From a bacterium (GTDB taxonomy: Bacteria; CAIWAD01): a stretch of 64,000 nt of DNA. Location of the stretch: positions 26,844 to 90,843 of the forward strand of contig JAUXWS010000043.1 in NCBI GenBank assembly GCA_030685015.1, written 5' to 3'. Both the position numbers and the translations under genes were made by a program. A model generated the notes under the pieces. That model did no database searches and had not been told where the DNA came from. It worked only from the letters and a program-made list of their open reading frames with translations. Positions 5,027 to 27,342 of this stretch are shown here, in pieces (position 1 is the stretch's first letter; each line of letters opens with the position of its first letter).

Positions 5027-5037
5027 GGGGGAGCTTC

Positions 5038-6764: not shown

Positions 6765-6767
6765 GGA

Positions 6768-7247: not shown

Positions 7248-7876
7248 GGCGCCGTTCCAGGCAGAAGTCGCAGGGAGCCCAGTTGCCTGGCCAGCCAGGT
7301 GAGGCGCGCCACCTGCTCCACCTGGTCCAGCAGATGGACGGCATCGCGCGCCGAGCGCGTGGAGATGGCCACGGCGCCGTGGTTGGCCAGGAGGATGACC
7401 GGCGAGCGGCCCAGCCAGGGCCGCAGCGAGGCAAAGAGCTCCGGACTGCCGGGCGGGGCGTAGGGGGCGAGTGGCACTGGTCCCCCCAGCAGCAGGTGCA
7501 GCTCCGGCACCAGCAGTGGCGCCAGTCCCTCGGCCGTGCAGGCAAAGGCCGTGGCGTGGGGCGGATGGGCGTGGACGACGGCCACCGCCTCCGGCAGGTG
7601 GCGGTAGATGCCCAGATGCAGCTCCACCTCCGTGCTGGGATTCCCACCTCCCGATGGGCGGCCCTGCTCGTCCAGCCGCAGGAAATCGCGGGCCCTCAAT
7701 TCCCCCTTGCAGCAGCGGGCGGGACTGCACAGCATCAGCGATCGCGCCGGGTGGTGGGAGGTGCCGACGGGGGAGAGGCGGGCGCTCAGGTTGCCCTCAT
7801 AGGCGGCCACCAGGCCCCGGGCGTGAAGCAGGCGGGCGGCCGCCTCCAGCTCCTGGCGCAGCTCGGATTCGCTCAT
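7244..7876 (-). CDS. Class II aldolase/adducin-family protein (fuculose-phosphate aldolase-like).
   Basis: N-terminal LHARGLVAAYEGNLSAR and HxH metal-ligand motifs (VVHAHPPHATAFA). Trimmed to MSESELRQ. Its ATG overlaps the stop of the upstream outer-membrane-protein gene (ATGA). Confidence 0.7.
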   Translation of the reverse strand: MSESELRQELEAAARLLHARGLVAAYEGNLSARLSPVGTSHHPARSLMLCSPARCCKGELRARDFLRLDEQGRPSGGGNPSTEVELHLGIYRHLPEAVAVVHAHPPHATAFACTAEGLAPLLVPELHLLLGGPVPLAPYAPPGSPELFASLRPWLGRSPVILLANHGAVAISTRSARDAVHLLDQVEQVARLTWLARQLGSLRLLPGTAP

Positions 7877-10182
7877 GGCCGGCTCCAGGCGACCCGCAGA
7901 CCGGCCACGCGTCCGGCGGCAGGCACGGTCACGACGCGGCCGACGCGTTGATCCGCCGCCCAGGTCAGCCAGGCCGCCTCCGGCGCATCCTCGTCCAGCA
8001 GGTTGCGCGCCCACAGCGTCAGACGCCAGGCGGACCAAGCCTGCCACCGGCAGGCGGCCTCGCCGTCCAGGCGCAGGGCGGCGGGCAGGCGACCGGGCCA
8101 GCCGGGAGCGTTCCCCGCGTCACGCTCCCCCTGCCAGCGCGCTGTCAGGGCCGGCTCCACCTGCCATCCTCCCCAGCACCAGGATGCTCCCGCTTCGGCC
8201 ATCAGGGAGAAGGTGGGGACGCCCGGCAGCTTGTCCAGGTGGCGCAGGCGGCTGATCCACTGGCTGCTGTCCGGAACAGGTTGCCACCACAGGCCCTCCA
8301 GCCAGGTCCGCCGCCACGACCCCTGCAGCGCGCCTCTGAGCGGGGGCAGGCGCCAATCGAGCCGCAGATCGCCGCCGGCTTCTCGGGCGTCCAGGGGACG
8401 TGTGAGCTGGCCGGGCAGCAAGGCCTGGCCACGGGCAGTCCAGAAGGGCATGGGCAGATCCACCCAACGGCGTCCCCACAGGCCCAGCCGCAGATCCAGC
8501 GTGGAACCCGGACGCCAGGCCCACAGCCCGGCCTGGTCGACGAGCGGGGCGGGCAGAAGCCCCTCCATCTCGCCCCCCGCCACGGCGGCGATGAGCGGTC
8601 CGTCCCAGAGAGATTCCACGCTCTTGCCCGGGTCCCACCAACCCGGCACCGTGCTCATCTGTCGGCTGCGCTGCCAATAGACCTCGAGGCGCGGCTCCCC
8701 CTCGCCCACAAGGATGGCCAGACGAGGGTCGAGGCTGAGCAGATCCTGGTTGAAGCCGATGTCCGGCACGTCGCTCAGCTGGAACAAGCCGACTCGTCGC
8801 CGCCTCAGCTCGTAATAGCGGTAGCGCAGATCCATCGCCCCCTCCAGGGCGAGGGCGGAGGACCAATGCCAGCGGTCACGCAGTCCGGTCGCCAGATTGG
8901 TTGTCTGCTCCTCGACCTGCAGCCAGGGATGGCGACCGGTGGTCAACAGGCTGTCCGCGGACATGCTGCCCGCCATGGTGCGCGCCTGTTGTTCCAACTC
9001 CAGGCCAAGCTGCAGGCGGCCGCGCACATGCCGCTGTTCCAGGGCGGCGCGCAGGCCCCAGGCTTTCCGCTCGTCCTCCCGACGAGTGGAGAAGAGGTGG
9101 CGCTGGCCGGAGGAGAGGCCGACGGCGGGCAGCAGGCGGTCCAGGACGCGGTCCAGCTCCAATCCTGCGGATTCCTGCCGACGATGGCGGACCCAGAGGA
9201 GAACCTCGCTGCGATGCTGAAAGGAAGGCACCCAGGCCGCCCGCCCGCTCCAGGACAGCTCGCGGGAGCTGAGATCCACCTGGCGCCACTCCTCGGCGGA
9301 GCACAGGGGCAGATAGAGGCCCGGCAGCGTCGTGGTGATGTCGTCCCGCCGGGACTGGGCAATGCGGAACTGCTGATTCAGCGTGAGACGGGGGGCCGCC
9401 AGCCAGCGATGTCCCAGGGCGAGGTCGTGGTGCTGGTGTTCGCGGCCACCATGGGGGACTGGCTCCTGCGCCCGCACCGAGGCGTCCAGTGTCAGGCGAT
9501 GCCAGGCGCCCAGGGATTGCCCCAGGTGCAGGCCCCCTTCCCGGCCACGGCCACCCGCCGCCTCCATCCACACGGCTTGACGGACCGTGGGCGGTTCCGG
9601 TGTCAGGTCCACGCCCTCCCGCACGCGCACGCCGAAGAAAGTGGGATGGCCCATGGCGTGGAGGCCGCCGGCGGGCGTCAGGACCCCACCCTCGACCCGG
9701 GCCGGCCAGACGCCGCCCCAGCCGTCCTCGGCGGGCAGCAGGTCGATCAGCCGCTGCCGTGGGTGGAGGAGGGGACTGTCCCCCGCCCGGTCGGGGCGGC
9801 CATCCCCGTCCAAGTCGACCCTTCCACCCGCCGTGACCGGGTGGATGAGCCGGAGGGAATCCTCGGCGAAGCCGGCGGCCAGCGTGGCCCGCGCCGCCAG
9901 TTCGATGGGGAGGAAGGCCTCACGCCGCAGCCAGAACCGCATGCGCAGCGTCTCGTGGCCAGGGGCCCTTACCAGCAGATGGCAGGGACCCATGGGCAGC
10001 CGGTCGAAGGCGTAGTTGCCATGTTCATCCGTCAGGCAGCTGTCCTGCCCAACCGCCACCACCAGGGCGCAAGGCACGCCGCCGCCCGCGTCACGGACCT
10101 GGCCCCACAGGCGCAGGACCTCGGGGGGACTCGCATGGAGGGAGACAACACAGCTGAGCAGCGCCAGGGCGAACGTGTGCAT
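7873..10182 (-). CDS. Outer-membrane beta-barrel protein with an N-terminal carboxypeptidase-regulatory-like (CarbopepD_reg) domain. It is TonB-dependent-receptor-like, but no clear plug domain was recognised.
   Basis: Signal peptide (MHTFALALLSCVVSLHA). LWGQVRDAGGGVPCALVVAV...TDEHGNYAF is typical of CarbopepD_reg. The remainder is long, Trp/Arg-rich, with alternating amphipathic beta-strand character. An alternative start lies at 10215. Confidence 0.55.
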   Translation of the reverse strand: MHTFALALLSCVVSLHASPPEVLRLWGQVRDAGGGVPCALVVAVGQDSCLTDEHGNYAFDRLPMGPCHLLVRAPGHETLRMRFWLRREAFLPIELAARATLAAGFAEDSLRLIHPVTAGGRVDLDGDGRPDRAGDSPLLHPRQRLIDLLPAEDGWGGVWPARVEGGVLTPAGGLHAMGHPTFFGVRVREGVDLTPEPPTVRQAVWMEAAGGRGREGGLHLGQSLGAWHRLTLDASVRAQEPVPHGGREHQHHDLALGHRWLAAPRLTLNQQFRIAQSRRDDITTTLPGLYLPLCSAEEWRQVDLSSRELSWSGRAAWVPSFQHRSEVLLWVRHRRQESAGLELDRVLDRLLPAVGLSSGQRHLFSTRREDERKAWGLRAALEQRHVRGRLQLGLELEQQARTMAGSMSADSLLTTGRHPWLQVEEQTTNLATGLRDRWHWSSALALEGAMDLRYRYYELRRRRVGLFQLSDVPDIGFNQDLLSLDPRLAILVGEGEPRLEVYWQRSRQMSTVPGWWDPGKSVESLWDGPLIAAVAGGEMEGLLPAPLVDQAGLWAWRPGSTLDLRLGLWGRRWVDLPMPFWTARGQALLPGQLTRPLDAREAGGDLRLDWRLPPLRGALQGSWRRTWLEGLWWQPVPDSSQWISRLRHLDKLPGVPTFSLMAEAGASWCWGGWQVEPALTARWQGERDAGNAPGWPGRLPAALRLDGEAACRWQAWSAWRLTLWARNLLDEDAPEAAWLTWAADQRVGRVVTVPAAGRVAGLRVAWSRP

Positions 10183-11938: not shown

Positions 11939-13066
11939 CTATTTCAGCAGAAAAATCAAGCCAAGGGGCACGACGAAAAAGGCCATCAGGACGTAGAGCA
12001 TGGGGATCAATCGGCTGCGCAGGGCCAGTTCGGCCATGCCCGAGGCCAGGCCGATGGGCAGGCGACTAAGGGGGAGGAAGAGGGCCGTCCCCGCCGCGTT
12101 GAACAAGGTGTGGACCATGGCAATGGCCACGGCCGCCGGGTTCTGGGTGGAGAGGGCGGCCAGCATGGCCGTGATGGTCGTGCCGAGGTTGGCCCCCAGG
12201 GTGTAGGGGAAGATTTGCTTGAGGGATAGCAGCCCGGCCCCTGCGAAGGGGACGATGAGGCTGGTGGAAACGCTGCTGGACTGCACCGCGATGGTGAGCA
12301 GGACGCCGATCAGCAGGGAGCGGATGGAGGAGCGGAAGATGCTGGCCTCGAACCAGTTCTCCGCCCGGGACAGGGCCACGCCCTTCAAGACCCGCGTCAG
12401 CATGACAATGGCCAGGAAGAGCAGGGTGAAGGCGCACAACAGGGAACACCAGGCATGCAGGTGCCAGGGCCCGTCCGTCGGCAGCACCTTGGTGAGCTGG
12501 GTGATGACACCTCTGGCCAGCGGTTCAACCAGAGCCTTGAGCGGACTCAGCACCTCCATGCCATGAACGTCGGCGACCAGGCCGGCCAGCCATTGCCCGG
12601 CATTGTGGAAGAAGCCCGTGAAGTACTCCAAGGGGAAAAAGACCAGGACGCAGAGCACGTTGAAGAAATCATGGACAATGGAGGCGGAGAAGGCGCGACG
12701 GAACTCGGAACTGCGGTTGATGTGGGCCATGGAGACCAGGGTGTTGGTCACCGAGGTGCCAATGTTGGCTCCCATCATGATGGGAACAGCCAGTTCCAGC
12801 TGCAGGGACCCTGAGGCCACCATGGCCACGACCATGGACGTGGTGGCGCTGGAACTCTGCATAAGACTGGTGGCCAGAATTCCGATGAACAAGGCGACGA
12901 GGGGGTTGGATGTGTAGTTCAGCAAGAGGCGGGGCAAATCCTGCCCGAACAGCTTGAAGGATTGGGACATCCATTCGATGGCAAGAAAGAACAGGATGAG
13001 CAGGACGACCAACAGGACCATGCTGAGCCACAGGGACCGGCCCGGTGGCGTCTGGGATGGGTTCAT
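11939..13066 (-). CDS. Na+/phosphate cotransporter family protein (NptA/YjbB-like).
   Basis: Multi-pass membrane protein with the repeated QSSSATT/QSSSVSTS motifs of Na/Pi-cotransporter II-related proteins. The provided ORF runs to 13384 through an AT-rich, atypical region. I trimmed it to Met-107 at 13066; the start remains uncertain. Confidence 0.7.
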   Translation of the reverse strand: MNPSQTPPGRSLWLSMVLLVVLLILFFLAIEWMSQSFKLFGQDLPRLLLNYTSNPLVALFIGILATSLMQSSSATTSMVVAMVASGSLQLELAVPIMMGANIGTSVTNTLVSMAHINRSSEFRRAFSASIVHDFFNVLCVLVFFPLEYFTGFFHNAGQWLAGLVADVHGMEVLSPLKALVEPLARGVITQLTKVLPTDGPWHLHAWCSLLCAFTLLFLAIVMLTRVLKGVALSRAENWFEASIFRSSIRSLLIGVLLTIAVQSSSVSTSLIVPFAGAGLLSLKQIFPYTLGANLGTTITAMLAALSTQNPAAVAIAMVHTLFNAAGTALFLPLSRLPIGLASGMAELALRSRLIPMLYVLMAFFVVPLGLIFLLK

Positions 13067-13445
13067 GCCGCGTTGGCTCCTGGCAACTGCAGAGTCTGTG
13101 GCACAAGGTATGGAAGTGGCAGGGTTAAAGATCATCCGGCGACTTCCCGGCAGCATGTCGGTCATGACCACGCCAAAATCCTGCCCGACACGTTGCAGAG
13201 GCAAGTCGTTGATTGTGAACGGGAACAGACTTCCTTGTTGAAGCAGGTCTGGAAATTCATGGGCGATGTCCGGGCACTTTGGCGGCAGGCACTGGATCCG
13301 CATCAGGCACGCATCGGAGGGCGAGCCTGGCCTGGCTGGGGCTGTAGCCTCAGATAAGTTTACATAATACATCTTATCCGACATTCATATGGTTGGAATC
13401 CGACCTCGTCCGCCCGCCGCGGCGTGGCCGATCCACCACCTGTGA
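13067..13445 (-). promoter_or_regulatory. Long, lower-GC intergenic region: putative promoter/leader of the Na/Pi cotransporter-phoU operon, and terminator region of the upstream TolB-like gene.
   Basis: About 380 bp with no convincing coding signal, in an otherwise tightly packed locus. Locally AT-rich (TTTACATAATACATCTTATCC). It lies immediately 5' of the transporter start on the minus strand. Confidence 0.3.
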
Positions 13446-14396
13446 TCAGGGCTGTCCGTCCATGGACTTCAGATAGATGTCCCACTGCTGCGATTGCCGC
13501 CCGGCAAAGGCAAGGCGTCGACCATCGGGCGACCACGCGGGCAGTTGATCGGCTTCACGCCCCTCTGGACCAAGGGGCAACCACTGGTTTGATTGGGGCG
13601 GGCGCACCAGGATGAGGCCGTCCCGCTCCACCGTGATCTCGCTCACCGCCCAGCCGGCGACGGCATGCCAGTCAGGCTGGCCCAGGATGCGCAGCGAGTC
13701 GACCATCAGCACGGATGGATCCTGGTTCTCCAGCCAGCCCAACTGATGGTTGCCCATGCGCAGCGCCAGGCCTTGGCTGGTGGGCAGCGGGCTGCTGTAG
13801 ATGCCGGCCCCGGTCAATTGGACCAGATTGTCGCTTTCAAGATCAAAGCGGAAAACGGCAGTCCTCCGCTCGGCGTCCCCCAGGTCCCGCCGCTCATCAA
13901 CCCGGTCGGAGACGAAATAGATGGACTTTCCATCGGGGCTGAAGCGGGGGTGCCAGTCGTCCGCGCCGCTGGCGGCGACAATTCGCCGCTGGCGGCCATC
14001 CGCCGCCATGACCAGGATGTCCCGGGGGGGCGAGGCGTCCAGGCTGGGGGCATGGACGGTGCAGACGATCCACCGCCCGTCGGGCGACCAGCTGGGATCC
14101 TCTTCCGCCTCGGGCGTGTCGGTCAAGCGGGTGGGACGGCCGTCGGAGACCTGCATGGTGTACAATTCCCAGTTGCCATCGCCGTTGTTCTGATACACCA
14201 GCTGCAGGCCGTCCGGGGAAAAACTGGGTGCGGTCTGGTCGGCAGAGGAATCGGTCAACCGCCGGGCCGGCGCCTCCAGCCAGGCCGGCTGGTCGATCCT
14301 CTTCGCTCCACCACTCCGCGGTCCCGCGCAGTGGGTATGCAGAAGGCAGACTGCGCCGCAGAGTCCGGCCGTGAGCAAGGCATGGACGTTCTTCAT
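13446..14396 (-). CDS. Periplasmic TolB-like beta-propeller protein (WD40-like PD40 repeats).
   Basis: Signal peptide followed by repeated (F/W)SPDG motifs (FSPDGLQLVY, WSPDGRWIV, FSPDGKSIYF, WSPDGRRLAF). No TolB N-terminal domain is obvious. Confidence 0.7.
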   Translation of the reverse strand: MKNVHALLTAGLCGAVCLLHTHCAGPRSGGAKRIDQPAWLEAPARRLTDSSADQTAPSFSPDGLQLVYQNNGDGNWELYTMQVSDGRPTRLTDTPEAEEDPSWSPDGRWIVCTVHAPSLDASPPRDILVMAADGRQRRIVAASGADDWHPRFSPDGKSIYFVSDRVDERRDLGDAERRTAVFRFDLESDNLVQLTGAGIYSSPLPTSQGLALRMGNHQLGWLENQDPSVLMVDSLRILGQPDWHAVAGWAVSEITVERDGLILVRPPQSNQWLPLGPEGREADQLPAWSPDGRRLAFAGRQSQQWDIYLKSMDGQP

Positions 14397-14407
14397 GATC
14401 TGCCGCC

Positions 14408-15550
14408 TTAGAAGTTCTGCCTCAAGATGTTCTGGAACTGCCTAAGGCTGAGCAGGGCATCGGCGCCGCTGACCGTCCCCGTCGCGTTGAAGCGCCCGCT
14501 TTGCAGGTCGGCCTGCAGGATGCCCCGCGCCGTGCAAAGGGCGGCCGCGCTGTAGGACGGATGACTTGAGTTCATGTCGGGAAAGATGCTGGTCTCACCA
14601 AAGTGCTGGCTGGCCAGTTTGGCGTCGCCCGTGACCGAGACCAGGATGTCCACCACGGTCAAGGCGAATTCACCGCGGCTGATCCGCTCTTCCGGCATGA
14701 AGGCGCCACCCGGACCAGTGCCCATGCCGCCCTCGCGCAGCACATCCTCGATCCAGGTGCGGGCCCAGTGGTCCTGGATGTCGTCCGGACTGAGGCGCTG
14801 GGGGGAGTCGTCGGCCCTGCCCGGTTCGTTGAAGCGGGGCTTGTCCACCTTGGCCCGCTTGGACAGGATCTCGGGCAGCTTCAGCTCCTCCACCAGCAAG
14901 ACGGCCATGTCGGCGCGATCAATGGCGTCCTCCAACGCGATCTTGGAACTGACCCGCGTGCCGGGCCTGGCGCGAATGATCTTGTTGCAGGTCTCCAGCG
15001 CCCGGTCGGCCGGGGCCGACCAATCCCCGCGTTGGGCCACCACCTGGCCGAACTCGCCCACCGCCGTCTGGAAATCCAGGTTGACCATGGCGGCGCGACC
15101 CCGCCAGAAGTGCACCTGCTCGGCCGGCGCCCCCAGCTTGGCGGCCTTCTCCAGGCTTTTGAGGGACTTGTTGTACCAATCATCCGGCTGGACGCGCGTC
15201 AGCACGCGGGCCTGGATCATCCAGGCCTGCCAGCGGTTGTCTGCCATGTCCACCGCTTTCGCGGCCGTCTTCAAGGCCTCCCGCCCTGCCTCCGGCGACT
15301 CCGCCATAAGCAGGGAGCGGGCGGCGTGGGCCATGAAATACTTGGGATCCAGGGCCAGGGCGCGGTCGAACTCCCGCCCGGCAGCCTCCAACTCGCCCCG
15401 ATCCAGCAGGCGAAGGCCCTGATCGACATGGGTTTGCGGTGTATCCAGGAGGGACTCGGATTTGAGCGGAGCTTTGGCGCACCCACCAAGGCCCGCCACC
15501 AGGATGGCTCCCAGCAGGGCGGGGGCCAACCATCGACGCAAGGTGTTCAT
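14408..15550 (-). CDS. Lipoprotein with TPR repeats and a C-terminal SLH (S-layer homology)-like domain.
   Basis: Lipobox LGGCA. N-terminal TPR-like helices (LDPKYFMAHAARSLL). The C-terminal segment DIQDHWARTWIEDVLREGGMGTGPGGAFMPEERISRGEFA matches the SLH consensus (FxDV..HWA...GI..G...F.P...iTRaE). Confidence 0.6.
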   Translation of the reverse strand: MNTLRRWLAPALLGAILVAGLGGCAKAPLKSESLLDTPQTHVDQGLRLLDRGELEAAGREFDRALALDPKYFMAHAARSLLMAESPEAGREALKTAAKAVDMADNRWQAWMIQARVLTRVQPDDWYNKSLKSLEKAAKLGAPAEQVHFWRGRAAMVNLDFQTAVGEFGQVVAQRGDWSAPADRALETCNKIIRARPGTRVSSKIALEDAIDRADMAVLLVEELKLPEILSKRAKVDKPRFNEPGRADDSPQRLSPDDIQDHWARTWIEDVLREGGMGTGPGGAFMPEERISRGEFALTVVDILVSVTGDAKLASQHFGETSIFPDMNSSHPSYSAAALCTARGILQADLQSGRFNATGTVSGADALLSLRQFQNILRQNF

Positions 15551-15565
15551 GTCTGCCTCCGACCT

Positions 15566-16381
15566 TTAGTTGACCACCACGAGGACGCGGCACTCGGAGA
15601 GGAAGGAAAGATTCTCGCTCAGGGCGTGCAGGATCTTGCCGTCCCGGTCCGGGATGACGATGTCCGCCTTGTGGCTGCCGCGCACGTCCGTCGCTTTGAC
15701 CAGCAGCGGCTTGGCACCGATGCGGTCCTGTTGCTGGCGGGCCTGCTCCAGGTTCTTGACATAGCCCACCATGCCGTTGCGCAGGGCCCACTCCCGATCC
15801 ACCCAGGCGTTGCTGTAGATTTCCTCCCCGGAGTCGTTGAGAATGCGCGGGGCCATGGCCGGGCGCAGTTCGAGACCCGTGCAGTCAACGATCAACCCGG
15901 TGTAGACGGACCCCAGGGGATTGATGTCACTGTACTGGATGGGCGTGGGCATGCCGTCCTGGAAGGGCATGCCGCCCAGCAGGACATCGCTCAGGTCGGG
16001 GCCGATCACCATTTCCACCACCAACTCGATGGAGCCGTCGCTCATGTAGATGGGCTCACCCACTTCGCGGAAGTTGCGGCAGACGCCACGCACCTCCGTG
16101 ATGATGCGGTCGTTCTCCAACATGAAATCCTGCACGGTCGTCTCCGAGGTGAGGGTCATGCCCTCCACCGTTTCGAGGATCTTGCGCAGGGCATCGGCGC
16201 GGGCCACGCGGATCTGGCCGGGCCGGCCGCCCACCGCGCTGGGGATGCCAACTCCCTTGGCCCGGATGATGCGGGACTGCCAGTCCACCGATCCGCTCTC
16301 GCTTTCCTGCATGACCTGGGCCAGGATGGCCGAGGAAGCCAGCAGGGTGGCCAGCACGGTCAGACCAATCCAGCGACGCAT
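15566..16381 (-). CDS. Secreted LPP20-family-like protein (FlgP/LPP20 lipoprotein superfamily-like), function unknown.
   Basis: Signal peptide (MRRWIGLTVLATLLASSAILAQ). RAKGVGIP...RVARADALRKILETVEGMTL resembles the LPP20 fold signature (AxGxG...ArraA..dA.r.L). Trimmed from the 292-aa ORF to Met-22. Confidence 0.45.
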   Translation of the reverse strand: MRRWIGLTVLATLLASSAILAQVMQESESGSVDWQSRIIRAKGVGIPSAVGGRPGQIRVARADALRKILETVEGMTLTSETTVQDFMLENDRIITEVRGVCRNFREVGEPIYMSDGSIELVVEMVIGPDLSDVLLGGMPFQDGMPTPIQYSDINPLGSVYTGLIVDCTGLELRPAMAPRILNDSGEEIYSNAWVDREWALRNGMVGYVKNLEQARQQQDRIGAKPLLVKATDVRGSHKADIVIPDRDGKILHALSENLSFLSECRVLVVVN

Positions 16382-16449
16382 GGAGTCCTCCTTCTCTGCC
16401 AGTGTGAACGGCCCGCGCCGGGTGGCGGGCCTTGATCGATCCAAAAAAA

Positions 16450-17310
16450 CTAGCGGGGTTGGCGTGCCCGGCTACGCTCCAGGTTCCACCGTACCCAGTC
16501 GGAATCGCCGGCAGACTCGATGCGCCCGGCGGTCTGGATCCGGCCGTCGGCCCCGATCCGGATCTCCTGCATGTCCCGCACAATGACCAGCCATTCGGCC
16601 AGGCTGACCTCGCGTGGTCCGGCCACGGGCACCGGTCCGGCCACGGGCACGGGAGCGCCGGGCGTGGGGGGCGCCGCCTTGGGCCTGGCCAGGAGGGCGC
16701 CCAGCGAGTCGATGTCGATGGCCGGCCGCGGGTCCACCAGGCCGGCGGCGTCGGAGGCGACGCGCACCTCGCCGCGCATCACCGTGAGCACGGTTTCACG
16801 TCCCTCCGCCACGCTCATCTTGAGCGCCGTGCCGGTGATGGCGGCACCCATGACCTGGGAGCGGATGGTGAAGGAGTCCCCCTCGTCCAGGTCGTCCAGT
16901 TCGGCCCAGATGTCCCCCTCCTCCAGCTCGAGGTCCACCTTGATGGCCGCCTCGCGCTCCTCCTCCAGCAGGCGGGCCAGGCGCAGGGTGGTGGCGGGCG
17001 CCAGGCGCAGCACGTTGCGGTCCAGGAACTCGATCTCGGCTCGGCCCTGGCTGCCTGTGCGCACTCGGTCTCCCTCCTCCACCCGGCTGCGCAGTGGCGC
17101 GTCCAACCAATCGGGCAGCTCGCCCGGCCGGCGGGCCAGCAGACCCTCGCGGAAGCTGACAAGCCCCAGCCCGGTCTCCAGCTGCACGCGGGCGGCCTGG
17201 ACTGCCGCCGGAGCGGCTTCCTGGGCGGCGCGGCTTTTTTCGAAGTCCTGGGCAAGAGCCGGATCCATGCCGGTGGCAACCACCAGCAAGGCGAGAAGGA
17301 TGAGGTTCAT
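16450..17310 (-). CDS. Secreted FecR-domain protein.
   Basis: Signal peptide (MNLILLALLVVATGMDPALA). Central FecR-like beta-rich segment (DRVRTGSQGRAEIEFLDRNVLRLAPATTL). It contains a PVPVAG PVPVAG tandem repeat. Trimmed from the 316-aa ORF to Met-31. Confidence 0.6.
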   Translation of the reverse strand: MNLILLALLVVATGMDPALAQDFEKSRAAQEAAPAAVQAARVQLETGLGLVSFREGLLARRPGELPDWLDAPLRSRVEEGDRVRTGSQGRAEIEFLDRNVLRLAPATTLRLARLLEEEREAAIKVDLELEEGDIWAELDDLDEGDSFTIRSQVMGAAITGTALKMSVAEGRETVLTVMRGEVRVASDAAGLVDPRPAIDIDSLGALLARPKAAPPTPGAPVPVAGPVPVAGPREVSLAEWLVIVRDMQEIRIGADGRIQTAGRIESAGDSDWVRWNLERSRARQPR

Positions 17311-17396
17311 GTCGGGTGCCGCTCTCTGCTTTGCACGGTCGAAAGTGTAGCGATTCGCCCAAGGGCAGGCAACACAAGCCCGGCCTGGGCCACGTT

Positions 17397-18062
17397 TCAC
17401 GCTTCGTGGGATGCACAGGCCCGGCGCAGGCGCGTGATGGCCGCCGCCAGGTCGGGCTGGCGGAAGAGGTGGGAGCCGGCCACCAGGATCTCCGCCCCCG
17501 CCCGGGCGCAGGCCGGGCCATGGACCTCATCCAGACCCCCGTCCACCTGGATGGGGATGGCCACGCCCAGCTCCCGCCACAACTGGCCCAAGCGGCGGAT
17601 CTTGTCCAGCACGGGTGCGTGGAAGGCCTGTCCTCCATAGCCGGGATTGACGCTCATGAGCAGGACGAAATCGAGGTGGGGCGTCAACCAGCGCAGCGGG
17701 GCGATGTCGGTGCCGGGATTGAGCGCCAGCCCGGCGCGGCAGCCGTGGGCGCGGATTTGCTGGAGCAGGCGGTCCGGATGGGGGCCCGCCTCGAGGTGGA
17801 CCGAAAGCCAGTCCGCTCCCGCCGCGGCGAAGGGCTCGATGAAGCCGGCCGGCTCGGCCACCATCAAGTGGATGTCCAGCGGCAGGGTGCTGCGCGTGCG
17901 GACGGCCCGCACGAAATCCGGTCCATAGCTCAGGTTCGGCACGAAGTGGCCGTCCATCACATCCAGGTGCAGCAGGTCGGCGCCGCCGGCGGCACAGGCC
18001 GCCAACTGCACTTCCAGGCGGAAGAGGTCGGCGGCGAGCAGGGATGGGGCAAGGCGGATCAT
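17397..18062 (-). CDS. rpe: Ribulose-phosphate 3-epimerase.
   Basis: Conserved HLDVMDGHFVPN, DIHLMV and MSVNPGYGGQAF motifs. The provided 463-aa ORF has a spurious N-terminal extension. The ATG at 18062 overlaps the stop of the PASTA gene. Confidence 0.9.
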   Translation of the reverse strand: MIRLAPSLLAADLFRLEVQLAACAAGGADLLHLDVMDGHFVPNLSYGPDFVRAVRTRSTLPLDIHLMVAEPAGFIEPFAAAGADWLSVHLEAGPHPDRLLQQIRAHGCRAGLALNPGTDIAPLRWLTPHLDFVLLMSVNPGYGGQAFHAPVLDKIRRLGQLWRELGVAIPIQVDGGLDEVHGPACARAGAEILVAGSHLFRQPDLAAAITRLRRACASHEA

Positions 18063-18826
18063 GGCAGGCTCCTTTCTTGCAGTCGCAGGTCCACCGTCGC
18101 GCCCGGCCGGACCTGGAGGCCCGCCGGCGGATTCTGCCCGACCACCGCCTGGGCATCGGACAGGCCGCTGTCCTGGGCGCTGGCCAGACCGACGCGGGCC
18201 AGGGTCCTCCTGGCTTGTCGCAGGGTCATGCCGGTCAGGTCGGGCACGGGCACCCAATCGGGGGCTGGGCCCAGGCTGAGCACCACGGCCACCAGGCCTC
18301 CCGGCGGCAGGCTGTCCCCGGCGGCCGGCACCTGGCTGAGCACGGTTCCCTCGCCGAAGCGCGCGTCGTGGCGCCATTGACACCGCAGGGTGTCCAAGTC
18401 CAGCTGGACATCCGCCAGGAGGCTTTGGGCCTGGCGCTGGGTCGCGCCCCGCAGGGTTGGGATCGGCACCTGGCGGCTGCCCGAGCTGAGCGTCACGTGG
18501 ATGCGCCGCCCTGTCTTGGTCATGCGACCGGCGCGCGGATGTTGCTCCATCACCACGCCGGCCGGGAACAGGCCGCTGGGATCGGGCCGGCGGCCGGCCT
18601 GAACCGCTTCGAATCCGGATTGCCGCAGCAGGATCTCCGCCTCGTTCCACTCCAGGCCCAGCACGCGCGGACACTGCCCCACCTCGCCCTGGCGGGTCAG
18701 GGCCGGCATCAGCAGTTGATCGAAGGCCACGAGCAGAAGCAGAAATCCCGCCAGCAGGGCGAACAGGGCCAGGCCCAGGCGCCGCCATCGTCGCGCTGGC
18801 GCTGACGCCACCTGATCACGCCTCAT
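18059..18826 (-). CDS. Membrane-anchored PASTA-domain protein with three PASTA repeats and no kinase or transpeptidase domain.
   Basis: N-terminal transmembrane helix (LGLALFALLAGFLLLLVAF), then three ~65-aa repeats, each with a (V/I)P(D/N)(L/V)xG motif and GxxV...P..G..V.. pattern. The stop overlaps the rpe start. Confidence 0.7.
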   Translation of the reverse strand: MRRDQVASAPARRWRRLGLALFALLAGFLLLLVAFDQLLMPALTRQGEVGQCPRVLGLEWNEAEILLRQSGFEAVQAGRRPDPSGLFPAGVVMEQHPRAGRMTKTGRRIHVTLSSGSRQVPIPTLRGATQRQAQSLLADVQLDLDTLRCQWRHDARFGEGTVLSQVPAAGDSLPPGGLVAVVLSLGPAPDWVPVPDLTGMTLRQARRTLARVGLASAQDSGLSDAQAVVGQNPPAGLQVRPGATVDLRLQERSLP

Positions 18827-20222: not shown

Positions 20223-21032
20223 TCAGGGCAGACGCATCGCCTCGCGCTCCGGACGGAAGGCCTCCCGCCAGCGGGCCGCCCCTTCCATCTCCCCGGCGTC
20301 CAGGGCGCGGTCCTCCAGGTCCAAGCCGAAGACCTCGGCAAAGCCCTCCCGCAAGGCGGCGGCCACTTCCGGGAAGGCTGGAGGGCGACCCAGCGCCTCG
20401 GCCAGGCAGGTCGTCTCGCGGGCCAGCTTGCCGGCGGCTGCCTCCCGCAGGCGCGGCTCATCGAAGAAGAGCGCGCCGATGCGCAGGTGTCCCGGCCCGA
20501 TGATGACGCTGCCGTGTTGCAGCAGGCCCTCGCGCAGTTGCCGCTGGGCGCTTCCCACCAGCTTCCGGTTCTGCCACAGCACCTCGCTCTGGGCCGTGGC
20601 GGCGAAACAGAGGCCGCCCGTCTCGCGCCGATAGGCGGCGGCGATGTCCACCCGGCGGGCCTCCTGGCTCAGTTCCAGACCCAGGCCGGCCAGGCCCGTG
20701 GCGAGGGCGGCATTGATGCGCTGATAGGCCTGGGGCAGGTTGCCGCAATGCAGGGGCGAGTGGGCGGGGATGGCCACGCAGTAGGTCAGCTCCTCGTCAT
20801 GGAGCACGGCCCGGCCGCCGGTCTCGCGCCGCACGGCGGGAATGCCCGCCTCCCGCGCCCGGCGCGCCATCTCCGGCGTCCAGGCCTGGCTGTGGCCCAG
20901 CGAGAGGGTGGCGGGACGCCAGGAGTAGCAGCGCAGGGTGAGGGGCGCGCCGCCGCCGCGGGCCAGCACGGCATCCACCGCCATGTTCCAGAGGCCTTCG
21001 CCTTCCGGATGAATCAGCCAGCGGCCTTTCAT
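20223..21032 (-). CDS. Lipoate-protein ligase / octanoyltransferase family protein (BPL_LplA_LipB domain).
   Basis: Conserved RRETGGRAVLHD and K-containing (NRKLVGSAQ) motifs of the LplA/LipB catalytic domain. Its stop overlaps the lpxA gene end region (4-nt spacing pattern). Confidence 0.7.
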   Translation of the reverse strand: MKGRWLIHPEGEGLWNMAVDAVLARGGGAPLTLRCYSWRPATLSLGHSQAWTPEMARRAREAGIPAVRRETGGRAVLHDEELTYCVAIPAHSPLHCGNLPQAYQRINAALATGLAGLGLELSQEARRVDIAAAYRRETGGLCFAATAQSEVLWQNRKLVGSAQRQLREGLLQHGSVIIGPGHLRIGALFFDEPRLREAAAGKLARETTCLAEALGRPPAFPEVAAALREGFAEVFGLDLEDRALDAGEMEGAARWREAFRPEREAMRLP

Positions 21033-21811
21033 CCGGGCAGGATGCCCCGCTCGGACTGTTCCACGAAGCGGATGATCAGGTCCGCGTCGGCTTCCCCGGC
21101 CGCTTCCTCGCGCAGGCGGGCCAGGGCCTGGCTTGCATTGTGGCTTCCCTTGCCGAAGAAGAGGCGATAGTGGTCGCGGATGCGGCGCAGGCGCTCCGGA
21201 TCGAAGCCGCGGCGCTTGAGCCCGACCAGGTTGAGGCCGCAGTACTTGAGCGGCTTGCCGTTGGCCAGGACGAAGGGCGGGACGTCCTTGGTCACTTCCA
21301 TGCCGCCGCCCACGAAGGCGTGGTCGCCGATGTGGACGAACTGGTGGACGGCCACCAGACCCCCCAGGGTGACGCGCTGGCCGATGTGGACGTGGCCCGC
21401 CACCTGCACGCCGTTGACCAGGATGCAGCCGTCGCCCACCTGGCAGTCGTGGGCCAGATGGACGTAGGCCATGATGAGGCAGCCCGCCCCCACCCGCGTG
21501 GCGCCGGATTCGGCCGTGCCGCGGGAGAGGGTGGCGAACTCGCGGATGACCGTGCGCTCCCCTACTTCGAGCAGGCTGTCCTCCCCCTCGAACTTGAGAT
21601 CCTGGGGCAGGCAGGAGACACTGGCCCCCTGATGGACCTCCACGCCCCGGGCCAGGCGGGCACCGGCATGGATGACGGCGTGGGGCCCGATGCGGCAGCC
21701 CTCCCCCAGCTCGACGTTCTCCTCGACATAGGCGAAGGGACCCACCTCGACGCCGGCGCCCAGCCGCGCCGCGGGATGGATCACCGCGCTGGGATGGATG
21801 AGCGGGCTCAC
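21029..21811 (-). CDS. lpxA: Acyl-ACP--UDP-N-acetylglucosamine O-acyltransferase LpxA.
   Basis: Hexapeptide-repeat left-handed beta-helix (IHPSAVIHPAARLGAGVEVGPFAYV...) with a C-terminal helical domain. GTG start at 21811 overlaps the lpxC/fabZ stop (GTGA). The provided 367-aa ORF is N-terminally extended. Confidence 0.85.
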   Translation of the reverse strand: MSPLIHPSAVIHPAARLGAGVEVGPFAYVEENVELGEGCRIGPHAVIHAGARLARGVEVHQGASVSCLPQDLKFEGEDSLLEVGERTVIREFATLSRGTAESGATRVGAGCLIMAYVHLAHDCQVGDGCILVNGVQVAGHVHIGQRVTLGGLVAVHQFVHIGDHAFVGGGMEVTKDVPPFVLANGKPLKYCGLNLVGLKRRGFDPERLRRIRDHYRLFFGKGSHNASQALARLREEAAGEADADLIIRFVEQSERGILPG

Positions 21812-23193
21812 TTGTCCACCACCATGGCGCTCATCTCGGCGCTGGTGACCAGCTGCCCGTCCACGTAGGCCTTGCCCTCCATCAGGCACATGCCGCGCCT
21901 CTGCTTGAGCATGGTCAACTCCATCACCAGCTGGTCGCCCGGACGCACCGGCTTGCGGAAGCGCACTTTGTCCAGGCCGGTGAAGTAGACCACCTTCTCC
22001 TCCGGCCGGTCGTAGCTGTTGAGGAGGAGGATGCCCCCCGTCTGTCCCATCGCCTCCACAATGAGGACGCCGGGCATGATGGGATGCCCCGGGAAATGGC
22101 CGGGGAAAAAGGGCTCGTTGATGGTCACGCATTTGATGCCCCGCACGAACTCGCCGGGCTTCAACTCGGTGATGCGGTCCACCAGCAGGAAGGGATAGCG
22201 GTGGGGCAGGATGCGCTCGATGGCGGCGGCGTCGAAGACCTCCTCGCTCAGGCGCTGCTGGTACTCCTTCTGCAGGCTCTTGCGCACGGCCTCCTGCTTC
22301 AGCTGGCGGACGAGGGCGACATGGGCCGTGTGACCGCCGCGGGCGACGAGGACATGGGCCTTGAGGGGCTGGCCCAGCAGGCAGAGGTCGCCGGCCAGAT
22401 CCACCACCTTGTGCCGCACCGGTTCGTTGGGCCAGTGCGGCTCCTGATCGCCCAGGATGCGCCGGCCGGCGGCCAGCCGCTCGCGATCGATTGTCACGGA
22501 GAAATGCTGCTCCAGGCTCCTGAGGTCCTGGTCGGCCACGTCAAGAAAGACAAGGGCGGCGTCCAGGCTGCCGCCCTGGATGAGGCCGCGGCGCTGCAGC
22601 TCCAACAGCTCGCTGGCGAAGCAGAAGGTGCGCGCCGGGGCGAACTCCTGGATGAATTCGCTCCAGCCGTACATGCTGGTGTACTGGGTGCCCAGGGCCG
22701 GGTTGGCGTAGTCCACCATGTAAGTGACGCGGAACTCCTCGGAGGGCACGACCACGATGTCGATGCCGCTGTCGTCATGGTAGACCACCGTGCGATCCAC
22801 GCTGAGGAAATCGCGCGGCTCCTCCAGCTCGCGGATGCCGGCCTGCTGCAGCACGGCGATGAAGGCCGCCGCCGAGCCGTCGAGAATGGGCGGCTCCGGC
22901 CCGTCCATCTCGATCAGGCAGTTGTCGATGCCCAGCCCGGCCAGGGCCGCCAGCAGATGCTCGGCGGTGTGGACACGCACGCCGTCCACCGCCAGGACCG
23001 TGCCGCGGTCGGTGCTCACCACGTGTTCGATGGTGGCCGGGATGTCCACGACGCGCTCCCCCTCCCGCCGGCGGAAGACCAGCCCGTGTCCGGCCGGGGC
23101 GGGCAGGAAGGTGACCGTGCAAGGGGCGCCCGTATGCAGGCCCAGCCCCGCAATGGTGGCGGAGTCCTCGATGCTTCGCTGGTTGAGGTTCAT
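21808..23193 (-). CDS. lpxC/fabZ: Bifunctional UDP-3-O-acyl-GlcNAc deacetylase / (3R)-hydroxyacyl-ACP dehydratase (LpxC-FabZ fusion).
   Basis: The N-terminal ~300 aa carry LpxC motifs ([37 protein letters not shown]). The C-terminal ~150 aa form a FabZ hotdog ([12 protein letters not shown]...[16 protein letters not shown]). The fusion is characteristic of Bacteroidota and related FCB lineages. Confidence 0.9.
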
Positions 23194-24272
23194 GCCTCTC
23201 CTTCCTCCGTGCCTTCTGCCTCAAGGGAGGACAAACGCTCCTCCAGCCCGGCCAGGCGCCGTCCCAGTTCGCGGGCCTGGCGTTGCAGCTCCGGCAAGTG
23301 GGCCAGGGCCGCTTGCTGCTGAAGGAACTCGCGATGGGGACGGGCCGGGAATCCGGCGTAGATGCGGTCGTCGGGAACGGAGCCGGTCACACCGCTGCCG
23401 CCGCCGATCTGCACGCGGTCGCCGATGCGGATGTGTCCGTTGATGGCCGTGGCGCCGCCGATGCGGCAGTCCGCCCCCAAGCGCGTGGAGCCGGCCACGC
23501 CGGACTGGGCGGCGATGAGGGTGCCCGGCCCCACCTCCACGTTGTGGGCGATCTGGATGAGGTTGTCCAGCCGCGCCCCGTGCCGGATGATGGTGTCTCC
23601 CATCGTGCCGCGGTCCAGGCAGCAGTTGGCCCCGATTTCCACGTCATCCTCGATCACCACGCGGCCGGCCTGGGGAATCTTCAGGGAGCCGCCCTCGGGC
23701 AGGGGGGCGAAGCCGAAGCCCTCGGCCCCCACGATCACGCCGTTCTGCAGGAGCACGCGGTTGCCCAGGACGCAATGCTCCCGCACCTGGCAGCCGGTGT
23801 GGATGAGGCAGTCCTCGCCGATGTGGGCTCCGCCATAGACCGTGGTCTGGCCCAGCAGCCGGCTGCCCCGCCCGATGACCGCCCCCGCCTCCACCACGAC
23901 CTGCGGCCCCAGCCAGCTCTCGGCGTGGACCTGGGCGTCCGGGGCGACCACGGCGCTGTCGTGGCGTCCCCACCCGGGGTGGGGCGGCGCCGGATGGAAG
24001 AGGCGCATGGCCAGCGCGAAGGCGAGGTAGGGATCGGGCACCACCAGCGCGGCGCAGCCCGCCGGGCAGAGGGCGCGGTCCTCCTCGCGCAGCAGCACCG
24101 CTCCCGCCCGGGTGGCGGGCAATTGCGGCCGGTAGCGGGGGCTGGCCAGGAAGCTGAGATGCTCCGGGCCGGCCTCCTCCAGGCCGCGCACGCCGCGGAT
24201 GACCCGGCCGACATCCCCTTCCAGGGCCGCTTTCAGTTCACCGGCCAGATCGGCCAGGGAGAACCGGGGCAT
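23190..24272 (-). CDS. lpxD: UDP-3-O-acylglucosamine N-acyltransferase LpxD.
   Basis: N-terminal uridine-binding domain, long hexapeptide-repeat region, and a C-terminal helix. Trimmed to MPRFSLADLAG. Its stop overlaps the lpxC/fabZ start. Confidence 0.85.
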   Translation of the reverse strand: MPRFSLADLAGELKAALEGDVGRVIRGVRGLEEAGPEHLSFLASPRYRPQLPATRAGAVLLREEDRALCPAGCAALVVPDPYLAFALAMRLFHPAPPHPGWGRHDSAVVAPDAQVHAESWLGPQVVVEAGAVIGRGSRLLGQTTVYGGAHIGEDCLIHTGCQVREHCVLGNRVLLQNGVIVGAEGFGFAPLPEGGSLKIPQAGRVVIEDDVEIGANCCLDRGTMGDTIIRHGARLDNLIQIAHNVEVGPGTLIAAQSGVAGSTRLGADCRIGGATAINGHIRIGDRVQIGGGSGVTGSVPDDRIYAGFPARPHREFLQQQAALAHLPELQRQARELGRRLAGLEERLSSLEAEGTEEGEA

Positions 24273-24273
24273 G

Positions 24274-27256: not shown

Positions 27257-27342
27257 CCGGTGCGGGGAGTCCTGTCTTGTTCTATCGTGGGTAGGAAGGT
27301 AGAGAGAAGGCCCGGCAAAACCAATGCGGGCCGGGTCGGGCT

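Follow-up and report, generated by a model that had tools for sequence, protein, structure and literature searches.

Four genes downstream of an outer-membrane biogenesis cluster

Between positions 13446 and 17310 of the window (the whole 64-kb stretch of DNA analysed), minus-strand open reading frames were found at the coordinates of all four genes that the first-pass annotation had described as a closely packed row coding for exported proteins, and public gene predictions made independently on nearly identical contigs gave matching products of 286, 271, 380 and 316 aa. The genes and their domains are as follows:

16450..17310, minus strand: FecR-domain protein, predicted to be secreted, 286 aa (open reading frame and Pfam)
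16471-16653, minus strand: conserved C-terminal motif of the FecR protein, residues ~220-280 (homologue alignment)
15566..16381, minus strand: D1-D2 protein, Tp0624-like and predicted to be periplasmic, 271 aa (previously called "LPP20-like")
15962-16315, minus strand: D1, an SHS2 domain of the FlgP/Lpp20 type, residues ~23-140
15569-15910, minus strand: D2, a conserved domain with the motif YTGLIVDxxGLxLRPAMAPRI, residues ~158-271
14408..15550, minus strand: TPR-SLH protein, a predicted lipoprotein, 380 aa (lipobox Cys24, TPR and SLH)
14969-15439, minus strand: PilF-like TPR domain, residues 38-194
14411-14956, minus strand: complete SLH domain of three repeats, residues ~199-380
13446..14396, minus strand: PD40 beta-propeller protein, probably a lipoprotein, 316 aa (Pfam PD40)

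According to the gene coordinates, the FecR gene is flanked by rpe, 86 nt away, and by the D1-D2 gene, 68 nt away; 15 nt then separate D1-D2 from TPR-SLH and 11 nt TPR-SLH from PD40, and the start of a Na/Pi transporter gene (public call) lies about 380 nt beyond the PD40 stop. Upstream of the row, on the same strand, is a bamA-lpxD-lpxC/fabZ-lpxA cluster for outer-membrane biogenesis, and a gene for a PASTA-domain protein is found two genes upstream of the module. A Crp-like gene is located 15 kb from the module and the closest ECF sigma factor gene (40387-41094) 23 kb off. Because the N-termini, read directly, carry signal-peptide or lipobox-type sequences, export is predicted for all four proteins.

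Domain content of the four proteins

The N-terminus of the FecR protein (MNLILLALLVVATGMDPALA, followed by QD after the putative cleavage site) resembles a cleavable signal peptide, and is succeeded by the FecR domain (PF04773; 47 bits against a Pfam cutoff of 24; residues 81-183, 16762-17070), a Pro-rich linker and the C-terminal motif. All 23 aligned module-linked homologues contain the FecR domain, and W240, W272, W275 and N276 are among their invariant residues; the protein belongs to a particular secreted subfamily marked by this motif. It has neither an anti-sigma N-domain nor a transmembrane helix besides the signal peptide, and among the window genes scanned with Pfam no Plug or TonB_dep_Rec match lay near its gene. 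An anti-sigma regulator of the FecI/FecR/FecA type was rejected for want of the cytoplasmic domain, the membrane helix, an adjacent ECF sigma factor and a TonB-dependent transducer. The recurrence of FecR genes lacking a sigma factor beside LPP20-type genes, noted in the first-pass annotation, was borne out in related loci.

In the D1-D2 protein, the N-terminus reads MRRWIGLTVLATLLASSAILA followed by QV, with a signal peptide ending in ...AILAQ before V. As no Cys occupies the cleavage site, in this protein or in most of 31 aligned homologues, it is not predicted to be a lipoprotein. D1 and D2 are both present, contiguous and alignable to Tp0624, the tandem-domain protein of Treponema pallidum. 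The C-terminal OmpA-like D3 is absent, the protein ending after D2 at 271 aa with no OmpA match in Pfam, and it is a representative of the D1-D2-only subgroup, of which about 50 proteins were known in 2016 (PMC5104382); 1,917 clusters at 50% identity match D1-D2 at E=1e-30 or better. D1 possesses an SHS2-like LPP20 domain whose homology to FlgP is backed by E values as low as 1e-16, although the Pfam LPP20 score is under threshold. The earlier "LPP20-like" label was thus correct for the N-terminal domain, but it missed the nearest relative, the D1-D2 unit of Tp0624. The domain assignments made for all four proteins in the first-pass annotation were judged correct.

The TPR-SLH protein has a lipobox (...LVAGLGG before Cys24), with the Cys invariant in 33 homologues and followed at position +2 by Ala or Gly, not Asp. 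Its SLH domain scored 32.3 bits against a Pfam cutoff of 20.8, whereas TPR_2 (26.6 bits, cutoff 27) fell slightly short; structure confirms the TPR fold. The predicted structure is all-helical, comprising TPR and SLH without a barrel, and the three SLH repeats form a pseudo-trimeric spindle. Repeat 2 retains the complete Trp/Gly/TRAE-type signature (HW(262)A...GG...SR(292)GE; family consensus TRAE) and repeat 1 retains DR(212)AD, while repeat 3 reads SGAD, with the Arg missing. In SLH domains the Trp, the Gly and the TRAE-motif Arg bind pyruvylated wall polymer. No match to CsaB (PS_pyruv_trans), the maker of the usual SLH ligand, was obtained among the Pfam-scanned genes of the 64-kb window, and SLH and CsaB are reported to be practically absent from Gracilicutes. 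Since OmpM is an SLH protein, such a domain is, contrary to what had been suggested, not unusual in a diderm per se, but it is so in Gracilicutes-type lineages. Two identities were discarded for this protein: an OmpM-type tether, as the model shows a lipobox Cys anchor instead of an outer-membrane beta-barrel, and a pilotin of the PilF/PilW/Tgl type, as it scored 27.8 against 154 for PilW and 26.9 against 225 for Tgl, with no secretin or pilus gene among the scanned window genes. These pilotins, moreover, have no SLH domain.

Four PD40 repeats (117 bits, Pfam) beginning at about residue 45 make up the propeller protein, whose N-terminus (...CLLHTH before Cys) is a non-canonical box with the Cys aligning to the LAGC lipobox of homologues. 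Identity with TolB was rejected on the TIGR02800 equivalog score (100.8 bits against 343.15), the lack of TolB_N and the lack of tol/pal neighbours.

Gene linkage across phyla

Linkage was counted in species-representative genomes, for TPR-SLH at 73 loci with enough flank and for FecR at 44 loci. The TPR-SLH gene lay immediately downstream of D1-D2 (400 nt or less) in 63 of the 73 loci and no more than 8 kb away in 68, and in 30 of 44 a FecR gene was found on the D1-D2 strand at a distance of 8 kb or less. These loci cover Delongbacteria, Calditrichota, KSB1, Fibrobacterota, Nitrospirota, Desulfobacterota, WOR-3 and LCP-89, and the genes flanking the module vary from phylum to phylum. Because the three genes travel together across phyla in unrelated genomic contexts, D1-D2, TPR-SLH and FecR form a real gene module in at least six phyla and not a chance row. 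Its conserved core is the pair of D1-D2 and TPR-SLH, the latter a predicted lipoprotein of outer-membrane type, with FecR as a frequent third partner. L001-L003 and L010-L012, on the other hand, were the only loci with a PD40 homologue directly after TPR-SLH, and the propeller is a lineage-specific add-on confined to Delongbacteria-like close relatives. The four-gene module proposed at first therefore holds across phyla for three genes, and the propeller, described as TolB-like, is neither TolB nor a generally conserved member.

Several variants were observed. In five Desulfobacterota loci D1-D2 and FecR are kept and TPR-SLH is absent, so the wall anchor is not obligatory. In the Desulfobacterota loci L031, L040, L044, L045 and L057, D1-D2 and FecR come directly after a Crp-family regulator, and wherever the upstream flank is available they are also preceded by a SpoIID+TPR protein and a CHASE2-adenylate/guanylate cyclase. 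In Nitrospirota a transglutaminase-like protein occurs as a neighbour and Fur-FeoB follows FecR; a class A PBP is encoded close by at loci from Nitrospirota and Anaerovibrio. Giant CHAT/TPR/PD40 proteins precede the FecR, D1-D2 and TPR-SLH genes in L015, L018 and L019. In other phyla a CsgG+FlgT_C protein joins the module, CsgG being present in 14 of 44 related loci.

Candidate roles and known systems

From the established domain identities, folds, gene linkage and homology to Tp0624, FlgP and SLH proteins, we infer a localisation, a wall ligand, physical contacts and a tethering or scaffolding role. The most likely reading, put forward tentatively and with somewhat less than even confidence, is that the module builds a scaffold that lies under the outer membrane, anchored by lipid and bound to the wall. 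The TPR-SLH lipoprotein would be held in a membrane by its lipid, and its SLH trimer would fix it to the wall through peptidoglycan or a pyruvylated wall-linked glycan; D1-D2 would be recruited by the TPR domain, as would the FecR protein, either directly or by an indirect route, and the window lineage would add the PD40 propeller lipoprotein. The conserved linkage in differing contexts and the invariant Cys24 with Ala or Gly at +2, indicative of a lipid anchor, argue for this scaffold, as does a precedent in treponemes. There D1-D2 and an OmpA-like wall-binding domain form one protein, for which a wall-positioning or outer-membrane-stabilising role was proposed (PMC5104382); here the domain for wall binding comes from the adjoining gene. 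A wall theme recurs in the variants with SpoIID+TPR and transglutaminase-like proteins, LysM-FecR proteins are known elsewhere (PMC5192318), and in the window lineage the module follows the bamA-lpxD-lpxC/fabZ-lpxA cluster. As all four products are predicted to be exported soluble proteins or lipoproteins, with no inner-membrane component linked, the envelope-spanning complex first envisaged is not supported. Against the scaffold stand the failure to find CsaB among the scanned window genes and the near absence of SLH/CsaB from Gracilicutes, the Desulfobacterota loci devoid of TPR-SLH, and a D1-D2 protein with no lipid anchor and a D1 insert modelled as helices.

The signalling neighbours in some phyla (CHASE2 cyclase with Crp, CHAT proteases, Fur-FeoB) also count against a scaffold, pointing to a regulatory rather than purely structural role. 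The FecR protein might be a periplasmic co-sensor that, together with D1-D2 and the lipoprotein on the wall, signals wall or outer-membrane status to a membrane sensor, for instance a cyclase or kinase of the CHASE2 type, or to some other transducer whose gene lies elsewhere. Besides those neighbours, with the SpoIID+TPR protein of the five Desulfobacterota loci, this is consistent with other systems, as a biofilm-regulating operon of Burkholderia encodes secreted LysM-FecR proteins beside CHASE2 kinases (PMC5192318), and alphaproteobacterial and pelagiphage clusters combine FecR with CsgG/CsgF and an adenylate cyclase (PMC9599517). We consider it unlikely: neither the window nor its close relatives have a gene for a sensor, cyclase, kinase or sigma factor next to the module; the signalling genes vary between phyla and could be a matter of lineage-specific synteny; and D1-D2 is most constantly accompanied by TPR-SLH, a structural protein, rather than by FecR. 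In peptidoglycan synthesis, class A PBPs are controlled by proteins that extend through the wall, namely the outer-membrane lipoproteins LpoA and LpoB and the TPR protein CpoB; LpoA, too, contains TPR. A comparable regulator or adaptor of synthesis or remodelling is suggested by the LPP20/CsgG/LpoB-type fold of D1, the faint match of the CsgG-like partner to LpoB, the TPR of the module lipoprotein, the wall enzymes at some loci (SpoIID+TPR, transglutaminase-like, class A PBP) and the PASTA-domain protein of the window. This is distinctly unlikely, however, because each enzyme neighbour occurs in a single lineage, the window has no PBP gene next to the module, and similarity to LpoA, LpoB or CpoB does not rise above noise.

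The CsgG partners also raise the prospect of an accessory (pilotin or anchor) to a type VIII-like outer-membrane secretion channel of the CsgG type, in which the PilF-like TPR lipoprotein would help to assemble a channel encoded nearby or elsewhere and anchor it to the wall. It is quite improbable, since most loci lack CsgG, TPR similarity of the PilF kind is generic, and the Pfam-scanned window genes include neither CsgG nor a secretin nor a substrate gene; on the same scan, membership of a CsgG/type VIII secretion cluster was discarded. In the window lineage the pairing of PD40 with TPR-SLH, conserved in all close relatives, and the PD40 repeats of the giant proteins in L015, L018 and L019, would fit a lineage-restricted analogue of TolB-Pal, the propeller lipoprotein binding the wall-binding lipoprotein as TolB binds Pal; with the TolB model failed, no tolQRA nearby, SLH in place of OmpA_C and no PD40 in the module of any other phylum, this is very improbable. 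The resemblance to flagellar ring proteins pointed out earlier survives in the FlgP homology of D1, in the CsgG+FlgT_C partners of other phyla and in a published model of MotB-like motor stabilisation by Tp0624 (PMC5104382), but no evidence of flagellar membership was found. As reported at first, no flagellar genes occur among the Pfam-scanned genes across most of the 64-kb window. The precomputed Pfam lists of L001-L009, L090 and L091 show none either, nor do the annotated recurrent neighbour clusters of related loci. Since the D1-D2 protein has no lipid anchor and, in the model, no ring-forming hairpin, there is no support for a ring or lattice like that of FlgP, and a motor accessory akin to the basal disk, H-ring or collar, with FlgP, FlgT and PflA as its models, is the least credible role of all.

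The module itself appears not to have been described before, and to find a conserved SLH protein among Gracilicutes runs counter to expectation. A wider proposal, which we regard as rather unlikely, is that D1-D2, TPR-SLH and FecR constitute an unrecognised outer-membrane-to-wall tether or scaffold, broad in Gracilicutes-type bacteria (Nitrospirota, Desulfobacterota, FCB group), that uses SLH and whose FlgP/FlgT/CsgG-like blocks may represent the non-flagellar stock recruited into flagellar outer disks and rings. If so, a means of wall binding regarded as all but exclusive to Terrabacteria would be in use across Gracilicutes-type bacteria.

The nearest known relative, by its D1-D2 tandem unit, is Tp0624 (PDB 5JIR), for whose function models only have been proposed (PMC5104382). 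It has a third, divergent OmpA-like domain, whereas the window protein stops after D2 and a wall-binding domain of another type, SLH, is encoded by the adjoining gene. The FlgP/Lpp20 lipoproteins have a lipobox Cys anchor, no D2 and, for FlgP, a flagellar context, unlike the D1-D2 protein; the D1 insert (residues 74-104) is similar in length to that of FlgP, but the latter is a ring-forming beta-hairpin and the former, in the AF2 model, two helices (H83-89 and H91-101) packing towards D2. Secreted FecR proteins paired with CHASE2 (COG4254 LysM-FecR; Burkholderia BiofilmReg operon) and those of alphaproteobacterial and pelagiphage curli clusters share with the window protein a signal peptide, a FecR domain, the lack of an anti-sigma domain and an association with wall-binding domains, CsgG-type proteins and cyclases. 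In contrast to LysM-FecR, the window protein has no LysM, its own C-terminal motif and, in its lineage, no CHASE2 gene nearby. Pal-TolB with CpoB combines the same kinds of parts, a wall-binding lipoprotein beside a PD40 propeller and TPR, but with OmpA_C, TolB_N and TolQRA where the window has SLH, no TolB_N and no TolQRA genes, and with a propeller that here is found only in one lineage. Finally, the Sap/SpaA S-layer proteins and OmpM display the same three-repeat SLH pseudo-trimer fold and the same predicted role, an envelope layer held to the wall. They differ from the window protein, which adds a TPR domain, in attaching by a beta-barrel (OmpM) or an S-layer lattice instead of an N-terminal lipid, and the hosts of OmpM are diderm Terrabacteria, whereas those of the module are Gracilicutes-type phyla.

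The four-gene module and its flanks

The module consists of four genes that end a long minus-strand gene string, and the first-pass annotation had proposed that their products, including a TolB-like propeller, form an envelope-spanning complex of four exported proteins.

Genes of the module and its flanks, in minus-strand order
Upstream, minus: bamA (24947-27376), lpxD, lpxC-fabZ fusion, lpxA, lipoate ligase, rsmB, PASTA-domain protein, rpe
16450..17310, minus: FecR-domain protein
15566..16381, minus: D1-D2 protein (D1, FlgP/Lpp20-type SHS2 domain; D2, further conserved domain)
14408..15550, minus: TPR-SLH lipoprotein
13446..14396, minus: PD40 propeller protein
Downstream: Na/Pi transporter, PhoU

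The G+C content of the window is about 70%, and the minus-strand ORFs 13446-14396, 14408-15550, 15566-16444 and 16450-17400 show a strong third-position GC bias. The ATG starts first assigned at 17310 and 16381 yield a FecR product of 286 aa and a D1-D2 product of 271 aa, the very lengths called independently in public annotations of near-identical contigs, where the other two products have 380 and 316 aa. The four genes are spaced by 11-68 nt, with FecR starting 86 nt past rpe. Between the PD40 stop and the publicly called start of the Na/Pi cotransporter, some 380 nt (roughly 13067-13445) are untranslated, and the module's transcription unit probably ends there; the longest ORF of this cotransporter (11939-13384, minus, 481 aa) is over-extended, public calls being of 360-375 aa. 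Scanning 12800-17700 for promoters and terminators revealed no promoter-like site and one terminator-like match within the PD40 gene, fewer than the shuffle expectation, and has no bearing on operon structure. Rfam and tRNA scans found no RNA element in or adjoining the module, the Rfam matches being tRNAs only. Elsewhere in the window, ARAGORN called a 95-nt tRNA-Arg(cct) at 1459-1553 (plus) within a 603-aa ORF (125-1936), probably a false positive since Rfam did not confirm it at the gathering threshold.

The first domain calls were confirmed by Pfam for FecR (47 bits), SLH (32 bits) and PD40 (117 bits), whereas TPR scored slightly under its cutoff and LPP20 far under (14.6 bits vs 25.9), the LPP20-type domain being recognized in the alignment of homologues. 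Export was likewise borne out at the level of prediction, as signals can be read at all four N-termini: putative cleavable-type ends in two proteins (ALA↓QD and ILA↓QV), a canonical lipobox (LGG↓C) in another, and in the remaining one a Cys aligned with the LAGC lipobox of its homologues.

LpxC and FabZ are fused as one 461-aa protein (21808-23193, minus) within the bamA-lpxD-lpxC/fabZ-lpxA outer-membrane biogenesis cluster (other listed ORFs, besides bamA, 23190-24395 and 21029-22132, the latter lpxA), a fusion also present in the relatives L001 and L002. Since about 325 nt of the listed lpxA ORF lie within lpxC-fabZ, lpxA probably starts later than listed (257-260 aa in relatives). Two genes ahead of the module, flanked by rsmB and rpe, is the gene of a 255-aa protein (18059-18826, minus) made up almost wholly of PASTA repeats and lacking kinase or PBP domains; its place is kept in close relatives. 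An ECF-type sigma factor (40387-41094, minus) is followed by a 208-aa ORF without Pfam match, possibly its anti-sigma factor (region 39764-41094); it lies 23 kb from the FecR gene, with no evident connection. Upstream of ftsH, an exported-looking run at 51747-55401 (minus) encodes a TPR protein (509 aa), a 467-aa protein without Pfam match and a PEGA-domain protein (242 aa), and may be another uncharacterised envelope gene set.

Linkage of D1-D2 and TPR-SLH genes across phyla

Close relatives (56-78% identity) keep the four genes in synteny, and with them the entire flank from ompH to PhoU, so that synteny there proves little alone; the closest named relatives are Candidatus Delongbacteria. 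For distant loci, one genome per species was scanned, giving at least 592 loci, and the best 80 were examined by calling ORFs, clustering them and searching with cluster-built profiles. These 80 belonged to Delongbacteria, Calditrichota, KSB1, Fibrobacterota/Chitinivibrionales, Nitrospirota, Desulfobacterota, WOR-3, LCP-89 and others. Of the 73 loci with at least 1.4 kb of downstream sequence each, 63 have a TPR-SLH gene 400 nt or less downstream of D1-D2, and 68 have one on the same strand no more than 8 kb away. Same-strand FecR genes at a distance of up to 8 kb occur in 30 of the 44 loci whose flanks are long. Genes beyond the cluster were not the same from phylum to phylum. This linkage pattern upholds the existence of a module and defines its conserved core as D1-D2 plus TPR-SLH, with FecR as a frequent third member. 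Some related species carrying the module are represented in culture, among them Desulfosudis oleivorans and Desulfocicer vacuolatum.

Arrangements of the module by lineage
Window lineage: FecR, D1D2, TPR-SLH, PD40
LCP-89-like genomes: 2,650-2,820-aa PD40+TPR+CHAT protein, FecR, D1D2, TPR-SLH
Calditrichota, KSB1: D1D2, TPR-SLH, D1-only paralogue, CsgG, FecR
Nitrospirota: D1D2, TPR-SLH, transglutaminase-like+CarboxypepD_reg, second D1-D2, (GNA1162-like), (CsgG+FlgT_C), FecR, Fur, FeoB
Desulfobacterota, form 1: D1D2, TPR-SLH, FecR
Desulfobacterota, form 2: CHASE2-cyclase, SpoIID+TPR, Crp, D1D2, FecR; no TPR-SLH

The propeller, initially counted as a conserved member, is a local addition, as a stand-alone PD40 gene adjoins the module only in Delongbacteria-like relatives. 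PD40 recurs beside the module in a second architecture, in which the gene directly upstream of FecR-D1D2-TPRSLH encodes a giant protein that starts with PD40 repeats, continues with many TPRs and ends in a CHAT protease domain (locus L019, 435-8858; also L015 and L018). The second Desulfobacterota form, exemplified by L031 (5302-11668; also L040, L044, L045 and L057), has a CHASE2-adenylate/guanylate cyclase and a Crp-family regulator, with 4 nt from D1-D2 to FecR. The expanded Nitrospirota cluster (L084, 12204-20499; similar in about 10 loci), in which the GNA1162-like gene carries DUF4412, repeatedly adjoins Fur-FeoB, an adjacency that hints at an iron link and may be lineage synteny.

Very distant D1-D2 homologues have unrelated or partly different neighbors (Desulfosarcina L004, Anaerovibrio L008/L009, L090 and L091), showing that the linkage is true of the main clade and not of every homologue. 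In the Anaerovibrio (Negativicutes) loci (4680-8777), a D1-D2 homologue annotated as "LPP20 family lipoprotein" is preceded by three co-directional proteins of 395, 389 and 292 aa without Pfam matches, a partner set different from that of the module and equally uncharacterised; a class A PBP is encoded about 5 kb downstream.

Features of the encoded proteins

A word-based search for the D1-D2 protein yielded 52 close relatives, and an exhaustive profile search 7,752 clusters (50% identity) at E<=1e-3 and 1,917 at E<=1e-30. A separate profile search returned no treponemal proteins. Two parts of the alignment are conserved, the N-terminal LPP20-type domain and a C-terminal domain with the motif YTGLIVDxxGLxLRPAMAPRI and six invariant residues. 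The same tandem, of unknown function, occurs in Tp0624 of Treponema pallidum, whose D2 has no structural analogue, and about 50 proteins outside treponemes carry it without the OmpA-like D3 (PMC5104382). The window protein is a member of this D1-D2-only group of the Tp0624 D1-D2 family. Its initially noted likeness to FlgP holds for the LPP20-type domain, with two differences: in contrast to FlgP and Lpp20 it lacks a lipobox Cys, and the segment inserted after the SHS2 helix and before the second strand forms two helices in the model, whereas in FlgP it is a ring-building hairpin (PMC12222027). Long family members, searched for partner-revealing fusions, included none with OmpA, SLH or TPR; they showed only further LPP20/FlgT_N copies, a single Hint domain, or nothing that matched Pfam. 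The Hint/intein-type domain is C-terminal to D1-D2 in P0220, a 559-aa metagenomic protein, an odd architecture for a periplasmic protein.

The TPR-SLH protein, identical to the NCBI entry "MAG: hypothetical protein Q8O14_05425 [bacterium]", is an SLH-domain protein. The lipobox Cys does not vary among 33 homologues. Of the SLH repeats, the second carries Trp, Gly and a TRAE-type Arg, the first retains DRAD and the third shows SGAD; it is with these Trp/Gly/Arg residues that SpaA and OmpM bind wall polymers, at the sugar and the pyruvate ketal (PMC10628300). The residue at +2 of the lipobox Cys is Ala or Gly, not Asp, which would be compatible with outer-membrane sorting by the E. coli rule, perhaps inapplicable in these lineages. 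P0111, a distant TPR+SLH protein from Vicinamibacterales taken up for a reverse check, was set aside as a different family because it has no D1-D2 neighbor.

In the FecR protein a signal peptide alone precedes the FecR domain, followed by a Pro-rich linker and a C-terminal segment whose motif VS.EEW..IVK..QQI.I.PDG...DWV.WN..RD is kept in all module-linked homologues, indicating an orthologous subfamily. The FecR domain is the sole feature of FecR anti-sigma factors found in it, and the subfamily profile gave only weak PDB matches (E=0.01), to putative anti-sigma FecR domains. The PD40 protein is a bare propeller of about 270 residues, and its reading as TolB was rejected (100.8 bits vs a cutoff of 343, no TolB_N).

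A possible wall-anchored scaffold and its alternatives

"Envelope-spanning" is too broad a term for the module, and we tentatively favor a scaffold or tether that is anchored to the wall under the outer membrane, a reading we consider somewhat short of probable. It is favored by a predicted lipoprotein that combines a genuine SLH wall-binding domain with TPR, by the pairing of its constant neighbor D1-D2 with wall binding, by the predicted secreted FecR-domain partner, and by the +2 residue. The only characterised relative of D1-D2 is fused to an OmpA-like wall-binding domain in treponemes (PMC5104382); being fused to a wall-binding module in one lineage and adjacent to one in others suggests that D1-D2 works together with it. 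D1-D2 would then dock on the TPR domain, with FecR serving as an accessory or a regulatory subunit. Substantial points stand against the scaffold. The usual SLH ligand depends on CsaB, and SLH/CsaB are reported to be practically absent from Gracilicutes (bioRxiv 10.1101/2021.05.31.446380); moreover, TPR-SLH is dropped in some lineages, and D1 shows no evident counterpart of the part of FlgP that forms rings.

The rival readings are each based on lineage-specific neighbors. Envelope sensing via FecR would fit its proximity to CHASE2 cyclases and Crp, CHAT proteases and Fur-FeoB, with precedents in LysM-FecR/CHASE2 operons (PMC5192318) and in curli clusters with FecR and a cyclase (PMC9599517). 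Control of wall enzymes would fit the nearby SpoIID, transglutaminase-like protein, class A PBP and PASTA protein. The module could also be an accessory of a CsgG-type channel or a lineage-specific TolB-Pal analogue. The window genes scanned with Pfam include none for flagella, secretins, CsgG, Tol, CHASE2 or CsaB. This agrees with the first-pass remark that flagellar genes are missing nearby, and none appeared among the genes annotated in the fetched loci either; a flagellar accessory is the least likely alternative.

The envelope gene module is real and conserved, with a proposed mechanism that is defensible and a function that we infer. Its proteins are annotated as hypothetical, all their domains are known, and their combination is apparently undescribed: no account of the gene cluster was found in the literature searched on Tp0624, LPP20/FecR/CsgG and CHASE2/FecR. 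It is unexpected that Gracilicutes-type phyla conserve an SLH lipoprotein, and that the orphan Tp0624 fold gains a genomic context. If the scaffold reading is true, this context would be the first functional one for the D1-D2 unit of Tp0624, a protein of the syphilis spirochete with a solved structure, no known role and an otherwise unique D2 fold (PMC5104382). In addition, two large "hypothetical" envelope sets, secreted FecR-domain proteins and LPP20/CsgG/GNA1162 lipoproteins, are joined in one recurrent neighborhood that is now open to genetic testing.

Attachment of the outer membrane is essential in diderm bacteria. Four systems for it are split along the Terrabacteria/Gracilicutes divide (bioRxiv 10.1101/2021.05.31.446380), and if the scaffold reading is true, an SLH protein that is lipid-anchored, has a fixed partner and is conserved in many Gracilicutes phyla would be a fifth arrangement that blurs this divide. 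We did not file the module under TolB, FecR anti-sigma factors, FlgP lipoproteins, OmpM, pilotins or type VIII secretion because a defining feature of each was looked for and found to be absent; as a system it fits best among wall-anchoring envelope complexes, as a variant of them.
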